Origin: Candidatus Saccharimonadales bacterium
Lineage (GTDB): Bacteria > Patescibacteriota > Saccharimonadia > Saccharimonadales > UBA10212
Length of the DNA: 64,000 nucleotides
Direction of reading: 5' to 3'
Assembly: GCA_049521895.1 (NCBI GenBank)
Contig: JBEKOJ010000001.1
Location: 418,717-482,716 of the forward strand
Positions within the stretch are counted from its first letter, which is position 1, and the number at the start of each line of letters is the position of its first letter. A model generated the notes under the pieces. The model was not told the origin of the DNA and did not search any database. It saw nothing but the letters and a program-made list of their open reading frames with translations. Position numbers and translations under genes: made by a program. Positions 1,714-43,061 of this stretch are shown piece after piece.

Positions 1714-3159
1714 ATGAAAATAGGGATTGTCGGTTGGGGCTTGGAGAGCCAGAGCGCATTCAGGTATTTTGGCCCTAGCCACGACTACCTGATAGTTAAC
1801 GAGTCAGCGCAGGATAATTTTCCGCCGGAGTCGAACAAGATCAAAGTCCGTTTCCTGGCCAATAAGGCTCCGATTGGAATTCCAGGACAAGTGCAGGATC
1901 TAAGCTATCTGAAGGGCATCGAAGAATGCGATAAGATCATTTATCAGCCCACGGCTTATTTTAACCTCCAGAAGGTTTTTGGCGACAACCCAGAATTTTG
2001 GAAGAAGGCCACTACTGTTTACGATATTTATTTTGAGAATACTCCAACCCAAAATATAATCGGCGTCACCGGCACCAAAGGCAAAGGCACCACATCTACG
2101 CTGATCGCCAAGATACTCGAGGCCAGCGGCAAAACCGTCCATCTTGGCGGCAATATCGGTACGCCCATCTTGGACTTGCTGCCCAGCATTAAAGCAAGTG
2201 ATTGGCTGGTATGGGAGCTGGCTAACTTCCAGCTAAAAGCTGCTTCTTATAGCCCGCATATTGCCGTCTGTTTAATGATTACTGAAGAACATCTGGACTG
2301 GCATCCGAGCATGGAGGATTACCTGGAGGCCAAAAGTAATCTCTTCCGACACCAAAAAGCCGAAGACGTTGCCATTTACTTTGCTAAAAATGAATACTCC
2401 AAAAAAATAGCCGGGTATTCACCCGGTAAAAAAATTCCTTACTACGAACCGCCAGGAGCATACATTCGCGAAGACGGTGTCATTGTGATTGACGAAACAG
2501 AGGTAATGAACAAGAATGAAGTTAAACTACTGGGCGAACATAATTTACAAAATATTTGTGCTGCCCTTACGGTTGTTTTTGAGGCGCAAGGGAGCGTTGA
2601 CCCCAGTAGAATAGTCCATGGCGGAATTCCACAGGGTCAATCCAGTGGAGCTTTAGCCCCGCTAAACGCCGTAGGCGGCTCCACGTGGATTGACAAAGCA
2701 AAAACAGTATTATCTAGCTTTAGCGGCTTAGAACATCGCTTGGAGTTCGTACGGGCCTTAGATGGCGTAAAATATTACAACGATTCTTTTGCCACCACCC
2801 CCGAGTCAGCAGTGGTCGCCCTAAAGACTTTTAGCGCACCAAAGGTTGTCATCTTGGGCGGATCAGACAAGGGTTTGTCCTTTGACCCGCTTGCCGATGA
2901 GGTTGCCAAAGGAAATGTTCGCAAAGCCGTAGCCATCGGGACTACAGCAGATAAAATAGTCAGTCTACTCAAAGAACACGGCTTCACGAATACCATAACT
3001 GGCTTGAATAAAATGACTGATATCGTGGCAGCTGCCCGCGAAGCTTCTCAGCCTGGCGACGTGGTATTACTAAGTACAGGCTGCGCCAGTTTTGGGCTGT
3101 TTAAGGATTATAAAGACCGCGGCGAACAGTTCAAGAAAGCTGTTCAAGCCCAGCAGTGA
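1714..3159 (+). CDS. murD: UDP-N-acetylmuramoylalanine--D-glutamate ligase
   Basis: 481 aa. Shows the Mur ligase P-loop GVTGTKGKGTT, GLEHRLEF and NDSFATTPES motifs in MurD order. Carries an extra ~31-aa segment (see 2597-2694). Confidence 0.9.
   Translation: MKIGIVGWGLESQSAFRYFGPSHDYLIVNESAQDNFPPESNKIKVRFLANKAPIGIPGQVQDLSYLKGIEECDKIIYQPTAYFNLQKVFGDNPEFWKKATTVYDIYFENTPTQNIIGVTGTKGKGTTSTLIAKILEASGKTVHLGGNIGTPILDLLPSIKASDWLVWELANFQLKAASYSPHIAVCLMITEEHLDWHPSMEDYLEAKSNLFRHQKAEDVAIYFAKNEYSKKIAGYSPGKKIPYYEPPGAYIREDGVIVIDETEVMNKNEVKLLGEHNLQNICAALTVVFEAQGSVDPSRIVHGGIPQGQSSGALAPLNAVGGSTWIDKAKTVLSSFSGLEHRLEFVRALDGVKYYNDSFATTPESAVVALKTFSAPKVVILGGSDKGLSFDPLADEVAKGNVRKAVAIGTTADKIVSLLKEHGFTNTITGLNKMTDIVAAAREASQPGDVVLLSTGCASFGLFKDYKDRGEQFKKAVQAQQ
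2597..2694 (+). other. in-frame 93-nt insertion inside murD containing a 16/17-nt inverted repeat, bracketed by TTGAC direct repeats
   Basis: TTGAC occurs at 2597-2601 and 2690-2694, exactly 93 nt apart. The arms are GTCAATCCAGTGGAGC (2636-2651) and GCTCCACGTGGATTGAC (2678-2694). The encoded ~31 aa lie where E. coli MurD, as I recall its sequence, has no residues. Confidence 0.5.
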
Positions 3160-3293
3160 GCTTTCGAGATTTATTCGACTCCTTCCTGAAACTCCAACTC
3201 GCCAACCATACTCTCAACAGCTGGCAGATTATCAACTAAGACAGACTTTCCGTCGAATAAAAACTCTCTTTAGGGGCGAGTCGACTCGAAAGT

Positions 3294-3989
3294 CTACTGC
3301 TGGGCAAGCACTCGTTTGAGCTGGGCGATAACCGGTTGTTCCGGCTGCATTACGGTTGCCCTATTGCCCGCGTAACCCCTCAAAAGTTGCTCTATCCAAC
3401 GGTAATGGGTACAGCCCAGGACGATTACATCGGCACCTGCTTCACAAACCTCGTTTACAGTTTTTGCGATTTTTTCGCGGTCTACGTTGTTATTCTCAAT
3501 CATTAACGCCCATTCGCTGCAGTCCGGTTCTAAAACTTTTACACCTTTGGCGTATTTATCTTTTAACCAACGGTAGCGCTCACTACTAAGTGTTCTAGGC
3601 GTGGCACAAACGGCAATTACTCCTGTTTTTGTGGCTTCGGCAGCCGGTTTGACCGCTGGCTCCATACCTACCATCGGTACAGAGAACTCCTGTCTTAGCT
3701 GGGCGATTAAATTAGTGGTAACGGTGTTACAGGCCACCACGATAACTTGGCAATTTTCTTGTATGAATTCTTGGAAGATGGGCTTTACGAAGCTGTGGAT
3801 TTCTTCTATGCTGCGCGATCCATAGGGCAAGTGAGCTTTATCATCCTTATAGATAATTTCTATGCCTGGCAATTCGCGCTCAATAGCTCTGATCACATGC
3901 AGGGCGCCTACGCCGCTATCAAACACACCGATCTTAACCTTGGGCACCCCGCTACCAAAATCTTGATGTTCCGAAATAGAGTTATTCAT
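3294..3989 (-). CDS. murI: glutamate racemase
   Basis: 231 aa. Carries VFDSGVGALHV, VVACNT and LGCTHY catalytic-Cys motifs. Confidence 0.9.
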   Translation of the reverse strand: MNNSISEHQDFGSGVPKVKIGVFDSGVGALHVIRAIERELPGIEIIYKDDKAHLPYGSRSIEEIHSFVKPIFQEFIQENCQVIVVACNTVTTNLIAQLRQEFSVPMVGMEPAVKPAAEATKTGVIAVCATPRTLSSERYRWLKDKYAKGVKVLEPDCSEWALMIENNNVDREKIAKTVNEVCEAGADVIVLGCTHYRWIEQLLRGYAGNRATVMQPEQPVIAQLKRVLAQQ

Positions 3990-4001
3990 TCTCTTCTTCT
4001 C

Positions 4002-5006
4002 TCAGGATTTGGTACGGGGCAAGTTGTCGGCTGCCCGGATGACGTTTTCGAACAAAGCGCAGACCGTCAGGGGGCCGACGCCGCCTTTTTCGGGAGTGAT
4101 TATTAGATCATCGCGTTGGTAAACTTCGGGGGCTAGATCACCGACGGTTTTGCCCGATTCGGAGGCCACGCCGGCATCGACCACCACGGCACCAGTTTTT
4201 ATCATGTCCGGATAAAGCACTGCCGGGCTACCAGTAGCTGTGATAATAACGTCGGCTTTCTTGGTATAGTCTGACAAATTTTTGACTTCGCGGCCGATAA
4301 CTTCAACCTCGTAGCCAGAGGCCTTAAGAATTTTTTCTAGCGGTGCGCCAACCAGCTTACCGCGGCCGACCAGTAAAATATGCTTGCCTGCCAGATCAAC
4401 CCCGTAGCCGGCTAGCAGCCACATAATCGCCATCGGCGTCGCCGGTTCAAACCAGGTTCCTCGCACCGTGACGTCCTGCCTTCTGGCGGAGCCAGAAGCA
4501 CCGTCGTCACTTAAGGTCCGCTGCGGCGTCAAAGACTGCGCTACTCCTTCACCGTATTTCATATACGACTCAGTCTGTTGCCCGTCTTTTCCTTGCACCG
4601 CACTCTTATGCGAGGCCCTGGATTTTGTCAAAGGTGGCCATGGTGCATCTGGGTCACCTAGGGCGTCCACGTCCTTTTGCGGTGCTACCAAATTAACTAT
4701 TTCATCTGTTTGGCTGGGATCTGTAAGCGGTAGTTGGACGATGATACTGTGTATGCTGTCGTCATTACTTAACTTGTTAAGTAATTTTGGCGCGTCTTTC
4801 TGTTGGAGCGTATGAATATCTACATCAATACCGACATCGGCGCCGTATTGCTTTTTAAGCCGGACGTAAGTATTGATAACCGGATCGTCTTTAACCTGTA
4901 CAATTGCCAGCTTGGGCCGTATGCCGCGCCCTCGCAGGCTGCGCACCTGTTTAGCGTGGCGCTCCTTGATAAAACCGGCCAGCTCTTGGCCATTAAGTAT
5001 TTTCAT
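4002..5006 (-). CDS. folD: bifunctional methylenetetrahydrofolate dehydrogenase/cyclohydrolase with a ~55-aa internal insertion
   Basis: 334 aa. Motifs IIVQLPL, KDVDA, PATP, GRGKLVGAPL and GGVGPLT are present. The spacer between KDVD and PxTP is ~72 aa versus ~17 in E. coli FolD as I recall it. Confidence 0.85.
   Translation of the reverse strand: MKILNGQELAGFIKERHAKQVRSLRGRGIRPKLAIVQVKDDPVINTYVRLKKQYGADVGIDVDIHTLQQKDAPKLLNKLSNDDSIHSIIVQLPLTDPSQTDEIVNLVAPQKDVDALGDPDAPWPPLTKSRASHKSAVQGKDGQQTESYMKYGEGVAQSLTPQRTLSDDGASGSARRQDVTVRGTWFEPATPMAIMWLLAGYGVDLAGKHILLVGRGKLVGAPLEKILKASGYEVEVIGREVKNLSDYTKKADVIITATGSPAVLYPDMIKTGAVVVDAGVASESGKTVGDLAPEVYQRDDLIITPEKGGVGPLTVCALFENVIRAADNLPRTKS
4764..4785. repeat. 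hairpin palindrome copy 1 (ATTACTTAAC-TT-GTTAAGTAAT), inside folD
   Basis: Read directly from the sequence: 10-2-10 dyad. It encodes LLNKLSN of FolD on the minus strand. Confidence 0.95.
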
Positions 5007-5014
5007 AGTTCATG

Positions 5015-5091
5015 TGGAGGGCCAGGAGGGACTCGAACCCTCGACATTCTGCTTAAGAGGCAGACGCTCTAACCAGCTGAGCTACTGGCCC
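5015..5091 (-). tRNA. tRNA-Lys (anticodon CTT)
   Basis: Cloverleaf folded by eye. Anticodon arm is TCTGC-CTCTTAA-GCAGA, T-loop is GGTTCGAGTCC, and CCA is encoded. Confidence 0.9.
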
Positions 5092-5156
5092 GCTTTTGGG
5101 CATCCGAATACTAGCACGCTCACCCCTGTTTTGTAAACCGATGATACAATTGCTTC

Positions 5157-5660
5157 ATGAGTAGGGACAAGACCAGCCTGAGGCAAAATTTGGTTTCAGC
5201 ACGGCTCAATATGTCGGCACAGGAAGTCCAAGCTAGGAGCCGCGCTATTGCCAATCAACTGATACGCAACGTGGATTGGGCAAACATCGGCAGGATGCAT
5301 ATTTATTCTTCGGTAACTAAATGGAACGAGGTGCAGACCGATCCGATCGCTGAATATGTACGGAGACAATGGCCAACAATTAAAGTTATACGCCCGCTGA
5401 TAAAAGCGGGCCAATTACTACCAAACCAGAAATTTGATCTGATAATCGTTCCGTGTCTGGGATTTGACGAAGAGTTGTACCGACTGGGCCTAGGTGGCGG
5501 GTTTTATGACCGTTTCCTGGTAAACCAGCCAAAAGCCTTAAAAATTGGACTGTGTTTTGCCAATGGATTTATAAAAGATGGCTTGCCCGACGAGCCACAC
5601 GATATTCCGCTAGATGTAATCGTCACTGAAGAGGATATAATTAAGGCCCATGATAGTTAA
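5157..5660 (+). CDS. 5-formyltetrahydrofolate cyclo-ligase
   Basis: 167 aa. The C-terminal motif LIIVPCLGFDEELYRLGLGGGFYDRFL is typical of the MTHFS family. It sits next to folD. Confidence 0.8.
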   Translation: MSRDKTSLRQNLVSARLNMSAQEVQARSRAIANQLIRNVDWANIGRMHIYSSVTKWNEVQTDPIAEYVRRQWPTIKVIRPLIKAGQLLPNQKFDLIIVPCLGFDEELYRLGLGGGFYDRFLVNQPKALKIGLCFANGFIKDGLPDEPHDIPLDVIVTEEDIIKAHDS

Positions 5661-16640: not shown

Positions 16641-16660
16641 TGCTATAATTACCCCTGTTG
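16641..16660 (+). promoter_or_regulatory. tRNA promoter module TGCTATAAT + TACCCCTGTT
   Basis: TATAAT lies at 16644-16649. Confidence 0.6.
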
Positions 16661-16674
16661 CACTTTCTGTTTAA

Positions 16675-16762
16675 GGGGAAAGGTAGTAGCGCCGATTCGG
16701 CTTTAGCCGAAGACGGATTCATTCCGGCAGGCGCGTTGAAGGAAAACCGTAGGTTGTCTTTC
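16675..16762 (+). ncRNA. R-type structured element, copy 1 (leader of tRNA-Pro CGG)
   Basis: About 88 nt homologous to 41097-41186. The two copies share identical ends (GGAAAGGTAG... and ...GGAAAACCGTAGGTTGTCTT). Two internal hairpins keep their pairing through compensatory changes. Confidence 0.55.
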
Positions 16763-16773
16763 AAAAATGGTTA

Positions 16774-16849
16774 CGGGGTGTGGCGCAGTTGGTAGCGCGC
16801 AGCGTTCGGGACGCTGAGGTCGCCGGTTCAAGTCCGGCCACCCCGACCA
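16774..16849 (+). tRNA. tRNA-Pro (anticodon CGG)
   Basis: Cloverleaf by eye. Anticodon arm is CAGCG-TTCGGGA-CGCTG. CCA is encoded. Confidence 0.9.
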
Positions 16850-40533: not shown

Positions 40534-41109
40534 ATGAAAGAGTTCCTAGCCATAGACATAGCTTTGCTGCCACCTGACGAAGTTATGGACACAGTAATAG
40601 CTATAAACAAAAGCCATAAACCTGATTTTTTGTTAAATAAAACCTCTCGGTTGCCTCACATAACTCTTTGCCAAGCAACTATAAAAAACAGGGATATCCC
40701 AAAACTTGCATTACTACTAGAAGAAATTGCCTCACGGCACAATCCTCTTATTTTGAAAGCAAAACTTGTTAATACACCCTACAGGTATTTCAAAATAGAT
40801 AGGACCAAGGACATTGATAATCTACATGACCAAGTAATGGCTAGCTCTAAAAACCTTATATTATATGACATAAAACCAGAGTACTTCTACGATTCTCCTG
40901 TAAGAGAAAGCAGTGTTGAATATGTGCGTAATTTTCAGAAGAAAGCTGCTTATGAGAAATATGATCCTCATATAAGCCTAGGTATAGTCAAGCCCACTTC
41001 GCATGAACAGGCCATTAGTTTTGTTACTAAGCGTTTAACTATCTGTCACCTCGGTAACTACAACACCTGCCGTAAGATTCTTTTTGAAACGGTACTGAAG
41101 GAAAGGTAG
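40534..41109 (+). CDS. 2H phosphoesterase superfamily protein (LigT-like)
   Basis: 191 aa with two H-x-T/S-x motifs (PHITLCQ and PHISLGI). Confidence 0.65.
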   Translation: MKEFLAIDIALLPPDEVMDTVIAINKSHKPDFLLNKTSRLPHITLCQATIKNRDIPKLALLLEEIASRHNPLILKAKLVNTPYRYFKIDRTKDIDNLHDQVMASSKNLILYDIKPEYFYDSPVRESSVEYVRNFQKKAAYEKYDPHISLGIVKPTSHEQAISFVTKRLTICHLGNYNTCRKILFETVLKER

Positions 41110-41186
41110 CAGCGACCGGTTCCGCGTAGCGGAAACTGGATTCACTCCAGTAGGGAGCGCCGGAGGAAAACCGTAGGTTGTCTTCC
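41097..41186 (+). ncRNA. R-type structured element, copy 2 (orphan, between the 2H phosphoesterase gene and ftsH)
   Basis: Homologous to 16675-16762 with the same ends and covarying hairpins. No tRNA follows it. Confidence 0.5.
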
Positions 41187-41189
41187 GGA

Positions 41190-43061
41190 TTAATTCAAAA
41201 TGGCGGCTTTGGGGAGATGTGAGCCCTTAAGGATTGTTAGAACTTCTTTGGCTTCCACGGTTTCTTTTTCTAACAGAGCCTTTTTGAGGTCTTCCAATTT
41301 GTCCATGTTAGCCTTAAGCACTGCCCGGGCCCGGGTGGCAGCTTCGGTAATCAAAGCTTCTACTTCATCATCGATAACCTTAGCGGTTTCGTCCGAATAC
41401 TGGCGTTCGTGGACTAATCTTTCTAGCATCATGCCCTCGTCCACTTGGAAGACCTGATCGCGCAGTTTTTTGCCCATGCCTTGGTTTACAATCATGTCAC
41501 GGGCCAGTTCGGCCGCCTTTTGCAAATCAGAGCCCGCCCCAGTTGTTACCCTATCAATACCGTAGATTAACTCTTCGGCAACCCGTCCACCCAACATGCG
41601 CGCCAACACATCTTTATATTCAACAATGCTGTGGTAGCTTTTATCCTCGGGCGGGATGAACCAAGTTACACCGCCAGTTGCCCCGCGTGGGATAATGGTA
41701 ACTTTGTGGACCATGTCGCTATCTGGCAGCACGTGGCCGACTATGGCATGGCCAGCCTCGTGATAGGCTGTTAGTTCCTTTTCTTTATCGCTCATGATCT
41801 TACTTTTGCGCTCTGGGCCAATGGCAACTTTTTCAAAGGCTCCAACTACATCTTCGTCCTCAATAACTTTGCGGTTATGCCGGGCGGCCAAAATTGCCGC
41901 CTCGTTGGCTATGTTAGCCAGATCTGCGCCGCTGCTACCGGCACTTTTGGCTGCCAACGAATCCAAATCCACGTCTTTGCTGACCGGCTTTTCAGCAAAA
42001 TGCACTTTTAGTATGGCTTCGCGGTCTTTGCGGTCGGGTAAATCAATATTTACCCGCCGGTCAAAACGTCCGGGGCGCAGCAGTGCCGGGTCTAGCACAT
42101 CCGAGCGGTTTGTAGCCGCCAGAACTATTACGTTTTGTCCCTGCTCAAAGCCATCCATCTCTACCAATATTTGATTGAGTGTTTGTTCGCGCTCATCGTG
42201 TCCACCGCCCATGCCGGATCCGCGGCGGCGGCCAACGGCGTCAATTTCGTCTATAAAAATGATGCATGGGGCGTTTTTCTTGGCCTTGTTAAACAGATCG
42301 CGCACCCTACTGGCGCCCACGCCTACGAACATTTCTACGAACTCTGAGCCACTGATGCTAAAAAATGGTGCGTTGGCTTCACCAGCTACCGCCCGTGCAA
42401 GCATGGTTTTACCGGTACCCGGTGGCCCAATTAACAGAACTCCCTTGGGAATTTTGGCCCCTACGCCCTCAAATTTCTTGGGGTATTTAAGAAACTCCAC
42501 TACTTCTTGCAAATCTTGTTTAGCTTCGTCGCTACCAGCAACATCTTTAAAACTGATGCGGTTTTTCTCATTACCATAAAGCCTAGCCCGGCTTTTGCCA
42601 AAACTTAAGGCCTGGTTCCCTTGCCCTTGGGCGCTACGGAACATAAATATAATCAGTACAACTATAATCACTACCGGAAGTACCCCTGTGAGTAAGCCAA
42701 TCCAGATACTGTTGCTGCTGGAGGGCGGAGCATTGGTCAAGACGACTTTGCCTTGCTGCAACCCCTGTTGATAGATACTGGAGCCGTCTTCTTTATAGGA
42801 TTTTTCGGTAGCTTTGGCCTGGCCTTTAGGGGTGATGTCCAATTCATCGCCCTTAACGGTTATCTGCTGGGTTTTACCACTGTTAGCATCGCTAATTACC
42901 TGCGAGAATGGAACGGTTTTAAGTTGGCTTGGTTGATTAAAGGCCGCAAATATAATCAGCCCAAAAAGAATGATTAAAGCCAAGAAGCCAACGTTCTTAA
43001 AATTGTTACGCCGTCGGTCATCGCTCCCGCCTCCAAGGCGAAACTGGTTTCTACCATCCAT
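41190..43061 (-). CDS. ftsH: ATP-dependent zinc metalloprotease FtsH
   Basis: 623 aa with AAA+ Walker A GPPGTGKT, the SRH region and the HEAGH zinc motif. Confidence 0.97.

Follow-up and report, generated by a model that had tools for sequence, protein, structure and literature searches.

Two copies of a structured element in the window

The stretch of DNA analysed here (the window) spans 64,000 nucleotides of contig JBEKOJ010000001.1 from a Candidatus Saccharimonadales bacterium. It contains two copies of an element of ~90 nt, both on the + strand, which an earlier note had singled out as a possible tRNA-derived RNA. Copy 1 (16675-16764) lies before tRNA-Pro(CGG) and on the same strand, with a spacing of 9 nt, and copy 2 (41097-41188) sits in the 80-nt gap between a 2H phosphoesterase gene and the convergent ftsH; these are the places where the note had put them. 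The features are compiled in Table 1. The ends of the two copies were identical, and their exact-block counts lay far above the expectation from shuffled sequences, which bears out what the note had said of them. Specifically, the 3′ block, the 20-mer GGAAAACCGTAGGTTGTCTT, occurred exactly twice in the window even when up to 3 mismatches were allowed (16741-16760 and 41165-41184; 0.00 expected by chance in 100 shuffles), and the 5′ block GGAAAGGTAGYAGCG occurred exactly twice (16677 and 41100; 0.22 expected). A covariance model run with its filters off found no third copy in the 64 kb, the next match reaching 12 bits (E 0.5).

Table 1. Features of the window that make up or adjoin the two copies.
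Feature	Position	Strand	Description
−10 hexamer	16644..16649	+	perfect TATAAT, 25 nt 5′ of copy 1
Copy 1 tail	16675..16688	+	GGGGAAAGGUAGUA; purine-rich, single-stranded, unpaired in the minimum free energy (MFE) fold; core part 1
Copy 1 inserted domain	16689..16734	+	P1 (16689-16693/16730-16734) around hp1 (16696-16711) and P2 (16714-16726)
Copy 1 P3 hairpin	16736..16764	+	UUGAAGGAAAACC-GUA-GGUUGUCUUUCAA; conserved A·G mismatch; core part 2
tRNA-Pro(CGG)	16774..16849	+	9 nt 3′ of copy 1, which lies within the tRNA 5′ leader
2H phosphoesterase gene	40534..41109	+	2′,5′ RNA ligase superfamily; weak Pfam PF13563 match
Copy 2 tail	41097..41111	+	GAAGGAAAGGUAGCA
Copy 2 inserted domain	41112..41158	+	P1 (41112-41117/41153-41158) with internal GA/GA loop; hp1 (41120-41134); P2 (41135-41151)
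Copy 2 P3 hairpin	41160..41188	+	CCGGAGGAAAACC-GUA-GGUUGUCUUCCGG
ftsH	41190..43061	−	converges on the 2H gene; intervening 80-nt gap taken up by copy 2

Two further statements about the neighbourhood held in part. Of the promoter that had been placed 5′ of copy 1, the perfect −10 hexamer is present, while a consensus scan of the window found no full sigma-70 −35/−10 site on the + strand. The context TATAAT-N-ACCYCTGTT also occurs 5′ of copies in tRNA leaders of other Saccharibacteria (L022, L042, L086, L099 and L103; L numbers designate loci retrieved in the searches described below). Copy 2 does fill its intergenic gap, but it also reaches into the gene, as the 2H stop codon (TAG, 41107-41109) falls within its tail, that is, within the conserved 5′ block. 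The protein encoded by this gene matches one from a Saccharimonadales MAG (metagenome-assembled genome) at 100% identity. The 2H/ftsH site is also occupied in L007 and L011. L007 is syntenic with the window, in the order RuvB, 2H, element, ftsH; in L011 (L011:4468-4845) the 2H gene has been lost and its last ~12 codons and the element are still there beside ftsH. Between 5015 and 55740 the window has 12 dispersed tRNA genes, including three tRNA-Met(CAT) and two tRNA-Pro, of which only tRNA-Pro(CGG) has the element in its leader.

Stems keep their pairing through compensatory changes

The element is real, repeated and structured: compensatory changes preserve the pairing of every stem, and folding takes place on the + strand. 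MFE folding gave the same architecture for both copies, with an unpaired tail, an outer helix (P1) enclosing two hairpins (hp1 and P2), and a separate hairpin (P3). The hp1 stem is UUCGGC/GCCGAA in copy 1 and UUCCGC/GCGGAA in copy 2, and P2, the hairpin 2 of the earlier note, is CGGA/UCCG in copy 1 and (C)UGGA/UCCA(G) in copy 2, capped as GGA-UUCAU-UCC and GGA-UUCAC-UCC, respectively. Both swaps that the note had named in these two hairpins are correct in both copies; what it had overlooked is that the base of the 3′ hairpin covaries as well (UUGA/UCAA versus CCGG/CCGG) and that an outer helix, GCGCC/GGCGC, closes a three-way junction. The P1 variant of copy 2 was also seen in L180, L168 and L036. 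Folding energies were −32.8 kcal/mol for copy 1 and −36.0 kcal/mol for copy 2, better than those of shuffled sequences (z −2.9 and −2.4, respectively).

The note had named further copies lacking covariation as an outcome that would speak against its reading; the family described below covaries. In its alignment, 92.4% of the cells were paired and two-sided changes were found in 18 of the 23 pairs; none of 500 shuffles reached the observed pairing and covariation values, and controls in which the alignment was slid were 32-53% paired. G-U pairs outnumbered A-C pairs in P1 and P3 (33:10), which fixes the folding strand. Among 25 copies with the three-way junction, 17 folded independently to the same architecture with very different hp1 sequences. 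The consensus tail across the family reads A-GGG-AAA(A)-G, and the length of its A-run follows that of the P3 U-run (75 copies on the diagonal, 14 off by one), in line with tail and P3 having to stay close. No covariation between the tail and either the downstream sequence or the hairpin-2 loop was seen on inspection of the family alignments. A switch in which the tail replaces the 5′ strand of P3 was also considered, and on paper GGGAAAAG can pair with UUUGUCUC, the same A·G included; this was set aside as unproven, the lower P3 stem covarying with its local 5′ strand.

The two copies belong to an element family found in Saccharibacteria

The covariance-model and Rfam scans that the earlier note had proposed were run; the copies belong to a large family that has no Rfam match. 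A degenerate pattern based on the syntenic L007, which showed the conserved positions, served as seed and was searched in one genome per species. It returned 110 stretches. Of the pattern matches, ~91-95 are real and come nearly all from Saccharibacteria MAGs, and ~21 are due to chance (~14 were estimated from base composition). Model R1 then recognised 104 copies in 8-kb loci from ~75 Saccharibacteria genomes, with at most 3 per 8 kb; 12 of the 104 have no match to the seed pattern and give an unbiased view of the family.

The core of the family consists of a tail, AGGGAAAG, a linker and a hairpin, AAGAAAACC-GUA-GGUUGUCUU, with an A·G mismatch. The upper part of this hairpin is nearly invariant, and its lower stem is variable and covarying. 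In the common form, the tail AGGGAAAAGAG is followed by a bulged hairpin P1-P2 capped by GGA-UUCAY-UCC and by P3, AUGAGAAAAACC-GUA-GGUUUGUCUCAU; the distance between the conserved blocks of this two-hairpin form is 40-45 nt and does not come in multiples of 3. The window form has the extra hairpin hp1, which turns the linker into the three-way junction P1/hp1/P2. The conserved ends and variable middle that the earlier note had observed thus correspond to the family core and to a lineage-specific insert, respectively. Two different subtypes stand 64 nt apart in L113:2926-3170. A look-alike in an Oscillospiraceae MAG (L032:7308-7393; R1 38.8 bits) combines an A-rich tail with a perfect 13-bp hairpin, whose cap is GGAUUCACUCC, and with a hairpin containing AAAAAACC..GGUU; either it is distantly related to the family or the pattern pre-selection produced it.

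Twenty of the 104 copies lie in tRNA leaders, 3-16 nt 5′ of tRNA genes with many different anticodons, and all 20 are sense. Many others lie 10-30 nt before the start codons of ribosomal protein genes, among which L2, L14, L5, S17, L17, L15, L11, L33 and S18 were confirmed by Pfam. In the S10-spc operon of L015 the element fills the only three sizeable gaps (L23|L2, S17|L14 and L5|S14), and in other genomes the copies of this operon sit before S17, L5, L15 or L17. With both neighbours taken as reference, 47 copies run sense and 17 antisense; antisense copies checked by hand include those in the pgk|tpiA gap (three genomes), after rpsI, in the lysS-greA gap, after groEL and before truB. Replication-strand bias was rejected as the source of this orientation bias, because GC skew goes along with gene orientation, so that the two are not told apart by it.

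A minimal core occurs in archaeal contigs

A metagenome scan with an 18-mer from P3 returned at least 116 loci. Most of those listed are AT-rich contigs in which the element is reduced to AGGGAAAG, a linker of 4-6 nt and the hairpin, with no middle domain; in the matches listed, the lower stem of the hairpin covaries widely. These contigs, of low GC content and 470-840 kb in size, code for S27a/eS31, L24e, Hjc and an Rpb2-type RNA polymerase subunit, and they are archaeal because S27a/eS31, L24e and Hjc are encoded. About a quarter of the listed archaeal copies have the AUG of an open reading frame (ORF) of at least 35 codons 2-6 nt past the conserved hairpin sequence. The genes at these AUGs include eS31, L24e, S10, Rpo2 and Hjc, together with SRP54 and MCM, which were named from their N-termini only.

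The minimal-core model R2 found no stand-alone minimal copies in the Saccharibacteria loci, and in the window it matched only the P3 parts of the two known copies (16737-16765 in copy 1). The middle domain is an insert in the linker that is specific to Saccharibacteria; insertions at such a place are often tolerated by structured RNAs when two conserved parts must stay close. An archaeal BRE-TATA promoter was rejected as the sole explanation of the core. Its geometry does fit, the tail standing at about −38 to −32 relative to the AUG; against it speak the covarying lower stem and the lack of a TATA-like linker in the commonest subfamily.

Other metagenome contigs and subtypes showed further arrangements. 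In GC-rich contigs, subtypes bear a linker hairpin resembling hp1, together with an additional conserved 3′ extension; one of them (L170:4200-4330, L139, L143, L198, L199, L224 and L231) reads tail, GGGUUCCGCG..CGCGGGAAGUAG, core and conserved UUCUGGCAGAGGGGGGUUCCUAAGGGGGGAGAUACCUUU, and looks like part of a larger RNA. L170 also has ORFs resembling, by eye, an IS630-type transposase. Tandem arrays were found in L154 (three units with a 59-nt period, L154:4917-5060) and in L227 (at least 5 copies plus degenerate ones before small membrane-protein genes, reverse-strand positions 3000-5600). Seven archaeal loci (L125, L136, L158, L175, L213, L126 and L121) have a second conserved hairpin ~20-70 nt 5′ of the core; its stem covaries (GAUUUC/GAAAUC, AUAUC/GAUAU, GCAUC/GAUGC), its loop is CGUCGGAGGCAAUGAAA, and together with the core it makes up a leader of ~85 nt before eS31, S10 and L24e (Pfam) and before S3Ae and SRP54 (N-termini). 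In L138, L147, L160, L167, L190, L209, L210, L219 and L229 all of them archaeal contigs, a conserved non-coding unit recurs around the core, in the order oligo-T run, hairpin GCGUUCACGCAGAUGAACGC, core AGGGAAAGUUUCAAG.., and then AAACGCCGAG..ACG.GC.GUCGUAA. It has no Rfam match and may be an unannotated non-coding RNA (ncRNA) gene. In several archaeal contigs the core is followed directly by a fragment resembling a tRNA T-arm and 3′ acceptor (L191:5050-5080, L202, L207, L220, L230, L236 and L156:3200-3320), an 11-nt T-arm segment being duplicated on both sides of the core in L156; such cases could be insertions in or beside tRNA genes, split tRNA halves or att-like remnants. Finally, tRNA-model matches of 95-161 nt on archaeal contigs (L196:469-629, L154:9053-9180, L125:1167-1261 and L214:1257-1355) are presumably intron-containing tRNAs.

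Copies bear signatures of insertion

Occupied sites differ between genomes, as seen for the 104 copies and at several operon positions. Some copies lie in frame inside genes. In truB of L054, L072 and L120, a complete element codes for 28-30 extra residues right before KVGHTGTLDP, which the TruB of L047 does not have. In L110 and L044, S5 carries a 35-residue C-terminal extension coded by the element, ahead of L15. The peptide of these in-frame copies reads GKGAA..DSLR..RDEEKP.VVPHKR. The S5 extension (L110:4060-4180, − strand; L044:7920-8000) occupies the position where most bacteria have rpmD (L30), and the L15 start overlaps the extended S5 as TAATG.

Direct repeats flanking the element exceeded the 99th percentile of a flank-mixing control in 15 of 99 copies, with lengths of 13-53 nt, and four pairs of 30-53 nt were perfect or near-perfect. 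Their distance from the core is 0-58 nt on the upstream side and 0-26 nt on the downstream side, which makes the ends ragged. A filled and an empty site could be compared at the L5|S14 junction, which is empty in L055 (..GAAAAGGAGAACAACTAATGGCTAAAAAA..) and filled in L015 with an 18-nt duplication, the element standing between two copies of AAGGAGA..AAGTAAT.GG.

The repeat period was 2 mod 3 in 12 of 16 cases, which is the exact condition under which an ORF opened by the duplicated start codon terminates on the duplicated stop codon. Twelve clear ORFs of this kind (relay ORFs), of 36-47 codons, were found at coupled gene junctions with the element in either orientation, their stops overlapping or abutting the true start as ATGA or TAATG; 4 of the 6 reading frames of the consensus are open. 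Where N-terminal codons had been duplicated (tpiA and truB), comparison with the real ones gave 17 synonymous and 3 non-synonymous differences (L070:4960-5115; L111:6559-6720, L089:1238-1400 and L047:960-1110, the last three on the − strand). It therefore seems that selection at the protein level acts on the spare N-terminal copy; the synonymous pattern might be due to gene conversion, to translational hopping or to splicing between the repeats. The 3′ end of lepA carries an insertion in both L050:6540-6700 and L025:3100-3290, flanked by one perfect 43-nt pair and one 52/53-nt pair, while the lepA ends themselves look clearly diverged. Either this is a hot spot of insertion, or the repeat pair has evolved in concert.

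The family is new and fits known classes in part

Rfam 15 at the gathering score gave no family for the element in the window, in 18 Saccharibacteria loci or in 19 metagenome loci, the matches there being tRNAs and one 5S rRNA only. With E relaxed up to 10, copy 1, copy 2 and one common-form copy matched only the neighbouring tRNA. A description of the element was not found in the full-text literature, and a paper on tRNA introns in Patescibacteria, which was checked, proved unrelated. The family is thus new, as far as Rfam and the published descriptions searched can tell.

Compared with known classes of repeats, the element is small, multi-copy, non-coding and variable in occupancy, as are MITEs (transposable elements of miniature size with inverted repeats), and its flanking repeats of variable length (13-53 nt) depart from the fixed short target duplication of that class. 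The in-frame insertions in unrelated protein genes, with a conserved peptide added, are like those of Rickettsia palindromic elements (RPEs). Elements of the REP/RAYT and IS200-IS605 groups have strand-specific hairpins that a Y1 transposase recognises, and their insertion leaves no target duplication; the hairpins of the present element are strand-specific, and its long target duplications would argue against that class. A riboswitch does not agree with the heterogeneous downstream genes (tRNAs, ribosomal protein genes, and genes that we take from their N-termini to be recA, clpC, nadD and tpiA), with copies that lie antisense or inside ORFs, or with the lack of a conserved terminator or of a pairing alternative to the ribosome binding site; likewise, a scan found no intrinsic terminator at copy 1 or copy 2.

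Two other functional candidates were rejected. P3 read as a TTGTCT/−10 promoter has the wrong spacing, and transcription would start inside an ORF. GGGAAAG (e.g. window 16676-16682) is a slippery-type X XXY YYZ heptamer and stands 4-6 nt before the hairpin in the minimal form; nevertheless, a −1 frameshift cassette made of this heptamer, spacer and hairpin was discarded, as the crossing ORFs are not in the X XXY YYZ register (L015 and truB, checked by hand) and the archaeal copies lie 5′ of the AUG.

A proposed insertion element that hosts may also use as RNA

Our leading reading, held with moderate confidence, is that the element represents a new family of short structured insertion elements, similar to RPEs and MITEs and atypical for either. 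New copies arise at the boundaries of genes, in the leaders of tRNAs and sometimes in frame within genes, in either orientation, and insertion comes with a target duplication of 13-53 bp and imprecise ends. Where it splits a stop/start overlap (ATGA or TAATG), the split is tolerated through a relay ORF across the element, as in the 12 cases above. There, the duplicated start codon opens the relay ORF and the duplicated stop overlaps the true start, which would keep translational coupling intact. Copies in tRNA leaders would be removed together with the leader by RNase P. Long, variable duplications with ragged ends fit a templated insertion, which might proceed by polymerase template switching or through a cDNA-type intermediate, and a strand-specific fold could be required by such a copying process or by a cis RNA role. 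With respect to the window, it is reasonable, at a similar level of confidence, to take copy 1 as a leader insertion before tRNA-Pro(CGG) and copy 2 as an insertion of long standing, located where the 2H gene has its 3′ end.

Several observations weigh against this reading. Terminal inverted repeats are missing, the consensus 5′ end AGGGAAAAGAGCAGCC and 3′ end GGUUUGUCUCAU not being complementary. No linked transposase, integrase or reverse transcriptase was associated with the copies, TnpA/RAYT genes not having been searched for, and 2.9 million viral contigs contained no match, on which ground a phage-borne element was rejected. About 85% of the copies have no flanking repeat, and duplications of 13-53 bp with ragged ends match no known bacterial transposition chemistry. 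The searches were seeded with exact patterns, so that the conservation of the seeded blocks arises partly by construction. The uniform sense orientation of the tRNA-leader copies (20/20) points the same way, as do the archaeal AUGs 2-6 nt past the hairpin, a position that suggests a role in expression, and a universal partner would account more readily than mobility for the near-identity of the archaeal and bacterial core. The mostly synonymous differences of the duplicated N-terminal codons do not fit plain selfish DNA either. Old copies are also well kept. When the window is compared with L007, identity is 53% for the 2H protein and 36% for third codon positions, but 67% for the element, the core of which is intact; in the comparison with L011, the element reaches 82%. 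Orthologous copies are thus under purifying selection, and plain selfish DNA would have decayed, given that the element is better kept than neutral sites. An RNA-level role, either gained by the insertions later or theirs from the outset, is therefore suggested by the sequences as likely, and many copies are probably also used by the host as RNA structure in transcripts, as the preservation of the old orthologous copies far beyond neutral sites makes probable.

The second reading gives that role first place. It holds that the element is a cis-acting RNA module recognised by a universal partner (the small ribosomal subunit or a shared RNase) just 5′ of start codons and tRNAs, where it would act in translation initiation or re-initiation, in 5′ processing or as a shield from 5′-3′ decay, the insertion-like features being secondary. 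We consider it possible, though clearly less probable than an insertion element, and the two are not mutually exclusive. It would account for a core that is near-identical in Archaea and Saccharibacteria, for the position of the archaeal AUGs, for the many Saccharibacteria copies before ribosomal protein genes and the all-sense copies before tRNAs, and for orthologous copies conserved well beyond neutral sites. It would also explain why the optional hairpins occur only in the linker, as expected where two conserved RNA parts must stay close, and why the tail A-run tracks the P3 U-run (75 on the diagonal versus 14 off by one). However, 17 copies are antisense to both neighbours, some of them kept at one site in three genomes, some copies are translated inside ORFs, and no gene lies downstream of the window's copy 2 on the same strand. 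In addition, start-codon spacing is tight in archaea and 10-30 nt in Saccharibacteria, and the partner remains hypothetical.

A broader version of the same idea, which we put forward only tentatively, would make the core an ancient or universally constrained RNA module of DPANN-type Archaea and bacteria of the candidate phyla radiation (CPR), with a universal partner, and the Saccharibacteria copies an expanded mobile derivative. The core could mimic a segment of small-subunit (SSU) rRNA to recruit or titrate a ribosome-associated factor, or it could be a small ribozyme. It may resemble the 3′ minor domain of SSU rRNA, GGGGUGAAGUCGUAACAAGGUAACCGUAGG[..]GGUUGG, where helix 44 ends and helix 45 has its base; the loci examined contained no 16S 3′ end for the comparison. 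If true, such a module would set the 5′ ends or the translation starts of tRNAs and of genes with high expression in organisms of ultra-small size.

Improbable by comparison is a new class of self-cleaving ribozyme, whose catalytic core would consist of tail and hairpin, with the hairpins of the linker as peripheral stems. A scattered multi-copy distribution is typical of hammerhead, twister and HDV-like (hepatitis delta virus-like) ribozymes, and the element shares with them a small conserved core, covarying stems, an optional peripheral domain and many copies scattered across domains, some adjoining tRNAs, repeats or an IS630-like transposase ORF (seen by eye from the sequence). Nevertheless, no Rfam ribozyme model matches, no candidate cleavage dinucleotide is conserved at either border, and the truB and relay-ORF copies keep all conserved features though cleavage would destroy those mRNAs. 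About as improbable is a family of trans-acting small RNAs (sRNAs) released from host transcripts, for example by RNase P at a tRNA, and acting through the single-stranded tail. A −10 box of their own and a tRNA 3-16 nt downstream are present for copy 1 and several relatives, the tail is conserved and unpaired, and antisense-located copies keep the fold; yet most copies lie inside operons or ORFs with no promoter of their own, no complementary tail target was found, and no terminator follows the element.

The origin from a tRNA that the earlier note had suggested, with hairpin 2 as a T-arm and GGUAG.AGCG as a D-arm, is effectively refuted and was dropped because the defining tests fail. Copy 1 does stand beside a tRNA and GGAUUCAYUCC is superficially T-arm-like, but the Rfam tRNA model gave no match on the element at E up to 10, ARAGORN called the neighbouring tRNA-Pro and nothing on the element, and model R1 aligned a window tRNA at just 10.6 bits (E 1.2). 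A T-loop is a 5-nt motif in which positions 1 and 5 close the loop as a reverse Hoogsteen U-A pair. The hairpin-2 loops are UUCAU, UUCAC or UUUAC (UUCAY in the window copies), closed by A-U, with a pyrimidine and not an adenine at position 5; moreover, hairpin 2 and the supposed D-arm, which the note had taken as the core, both belong to the lineage-specific insert and are missing from the minimal archaeal form. A small protein-coding module with the peptide ..GKRAA..DSF..RDEKNRRFVS.., for which the 4 open consensus frames out of 6 and the shared frame of the relay ORFs and the truB and S5 insertions might speak, is contradicted by block spacings that are not multiples of 3, by stops in that frame in many copies including copy 1, by paired stem substitutions that change the peptide and by tRNA-leader copies, which cannot code.

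Relation to known systems

To our knowledge, ultra-small symbionts, Saccharibacteria included, have very compact genomes with almost no described ncRNA or repeat biology. The element accounts for many of the 'long' intergenic gaps in Saccharibacteria genomes, and gene callers can be misled by its relay ORFs, by the extended S5 and by truB genes that look interrupted. The relay ORFs constitute a clear natural case in which an insertion between translationally coupled genes has been made harmless. The core shared by Archaea and Bacteria, located before archaeal start codons, offers a testable lead to a new expression or RNA-processing signal.

Among described repeats, the RPEs are the closest parallel. 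They are ~100-150 bp long and multi-copy, are predicted to fold stably as RNA and lack a transposase of their own, and they occur in the reduced genomes of host-dependent bacteria, both in intergenic regions and in frame inside protein genes, to which they add a conserved peptide (PMC10969869). The element is likewise short, multi-copy and folded, resides in reduced host genomes and has in-frame insertions in truB and S5. Unlike RPEs, it is no simple palindrome and combines a tail with two or three different hairpins; it has long variable target duplications and relay ORFs that keep translational coupling; and it is conserved across a class and not a genus, in an unrelated host lineage, with a core common to Archaea. 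It shares with MITEs, Correia/CREE, ERIC and REP/BIME repeats that it is non-autonomous, dispersed, located mostly at gene boundaries and co-transcribed with its neighbours. Such small repeats can affect how RNA is processed and how stable it is; RNase III cuts Correia-containing transcripts and ERIC contains an RNase E site (PMC10969869). In contrast to this group, the element has no terminal inverted repeats, and its ragged duplications of 13-53 bp replace a fixed short target-site duplication; its loops, bulges and tail are conserved in sequence while its stems covary, which is the signature of a tertiary-structured RNA and not of transposase sites.

With hammerhead, twister and HDV-like ribozymes and with the fluoride riboswitch the element has in common a compact core, variable peripheral stems, scatter across domains and several copies per genome. 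It differs from them in that it matches no such Rfam model, has no evident cleavage site or ligand logic, and occurs also inside ORFs and antisense to operons. Discontinuous ribosome binding sites are known from the type of phage T4 gene 38. In a similar way, the archaeal copies have a purine-rich, Shine-Dalgarno-like segment that is set off from the AUG by a hairpin, the base of which abuts the AUG. Unlike the T4 gene 38 type, the element is a conserved family that also occurs before tRNAs and in 3′ regions.

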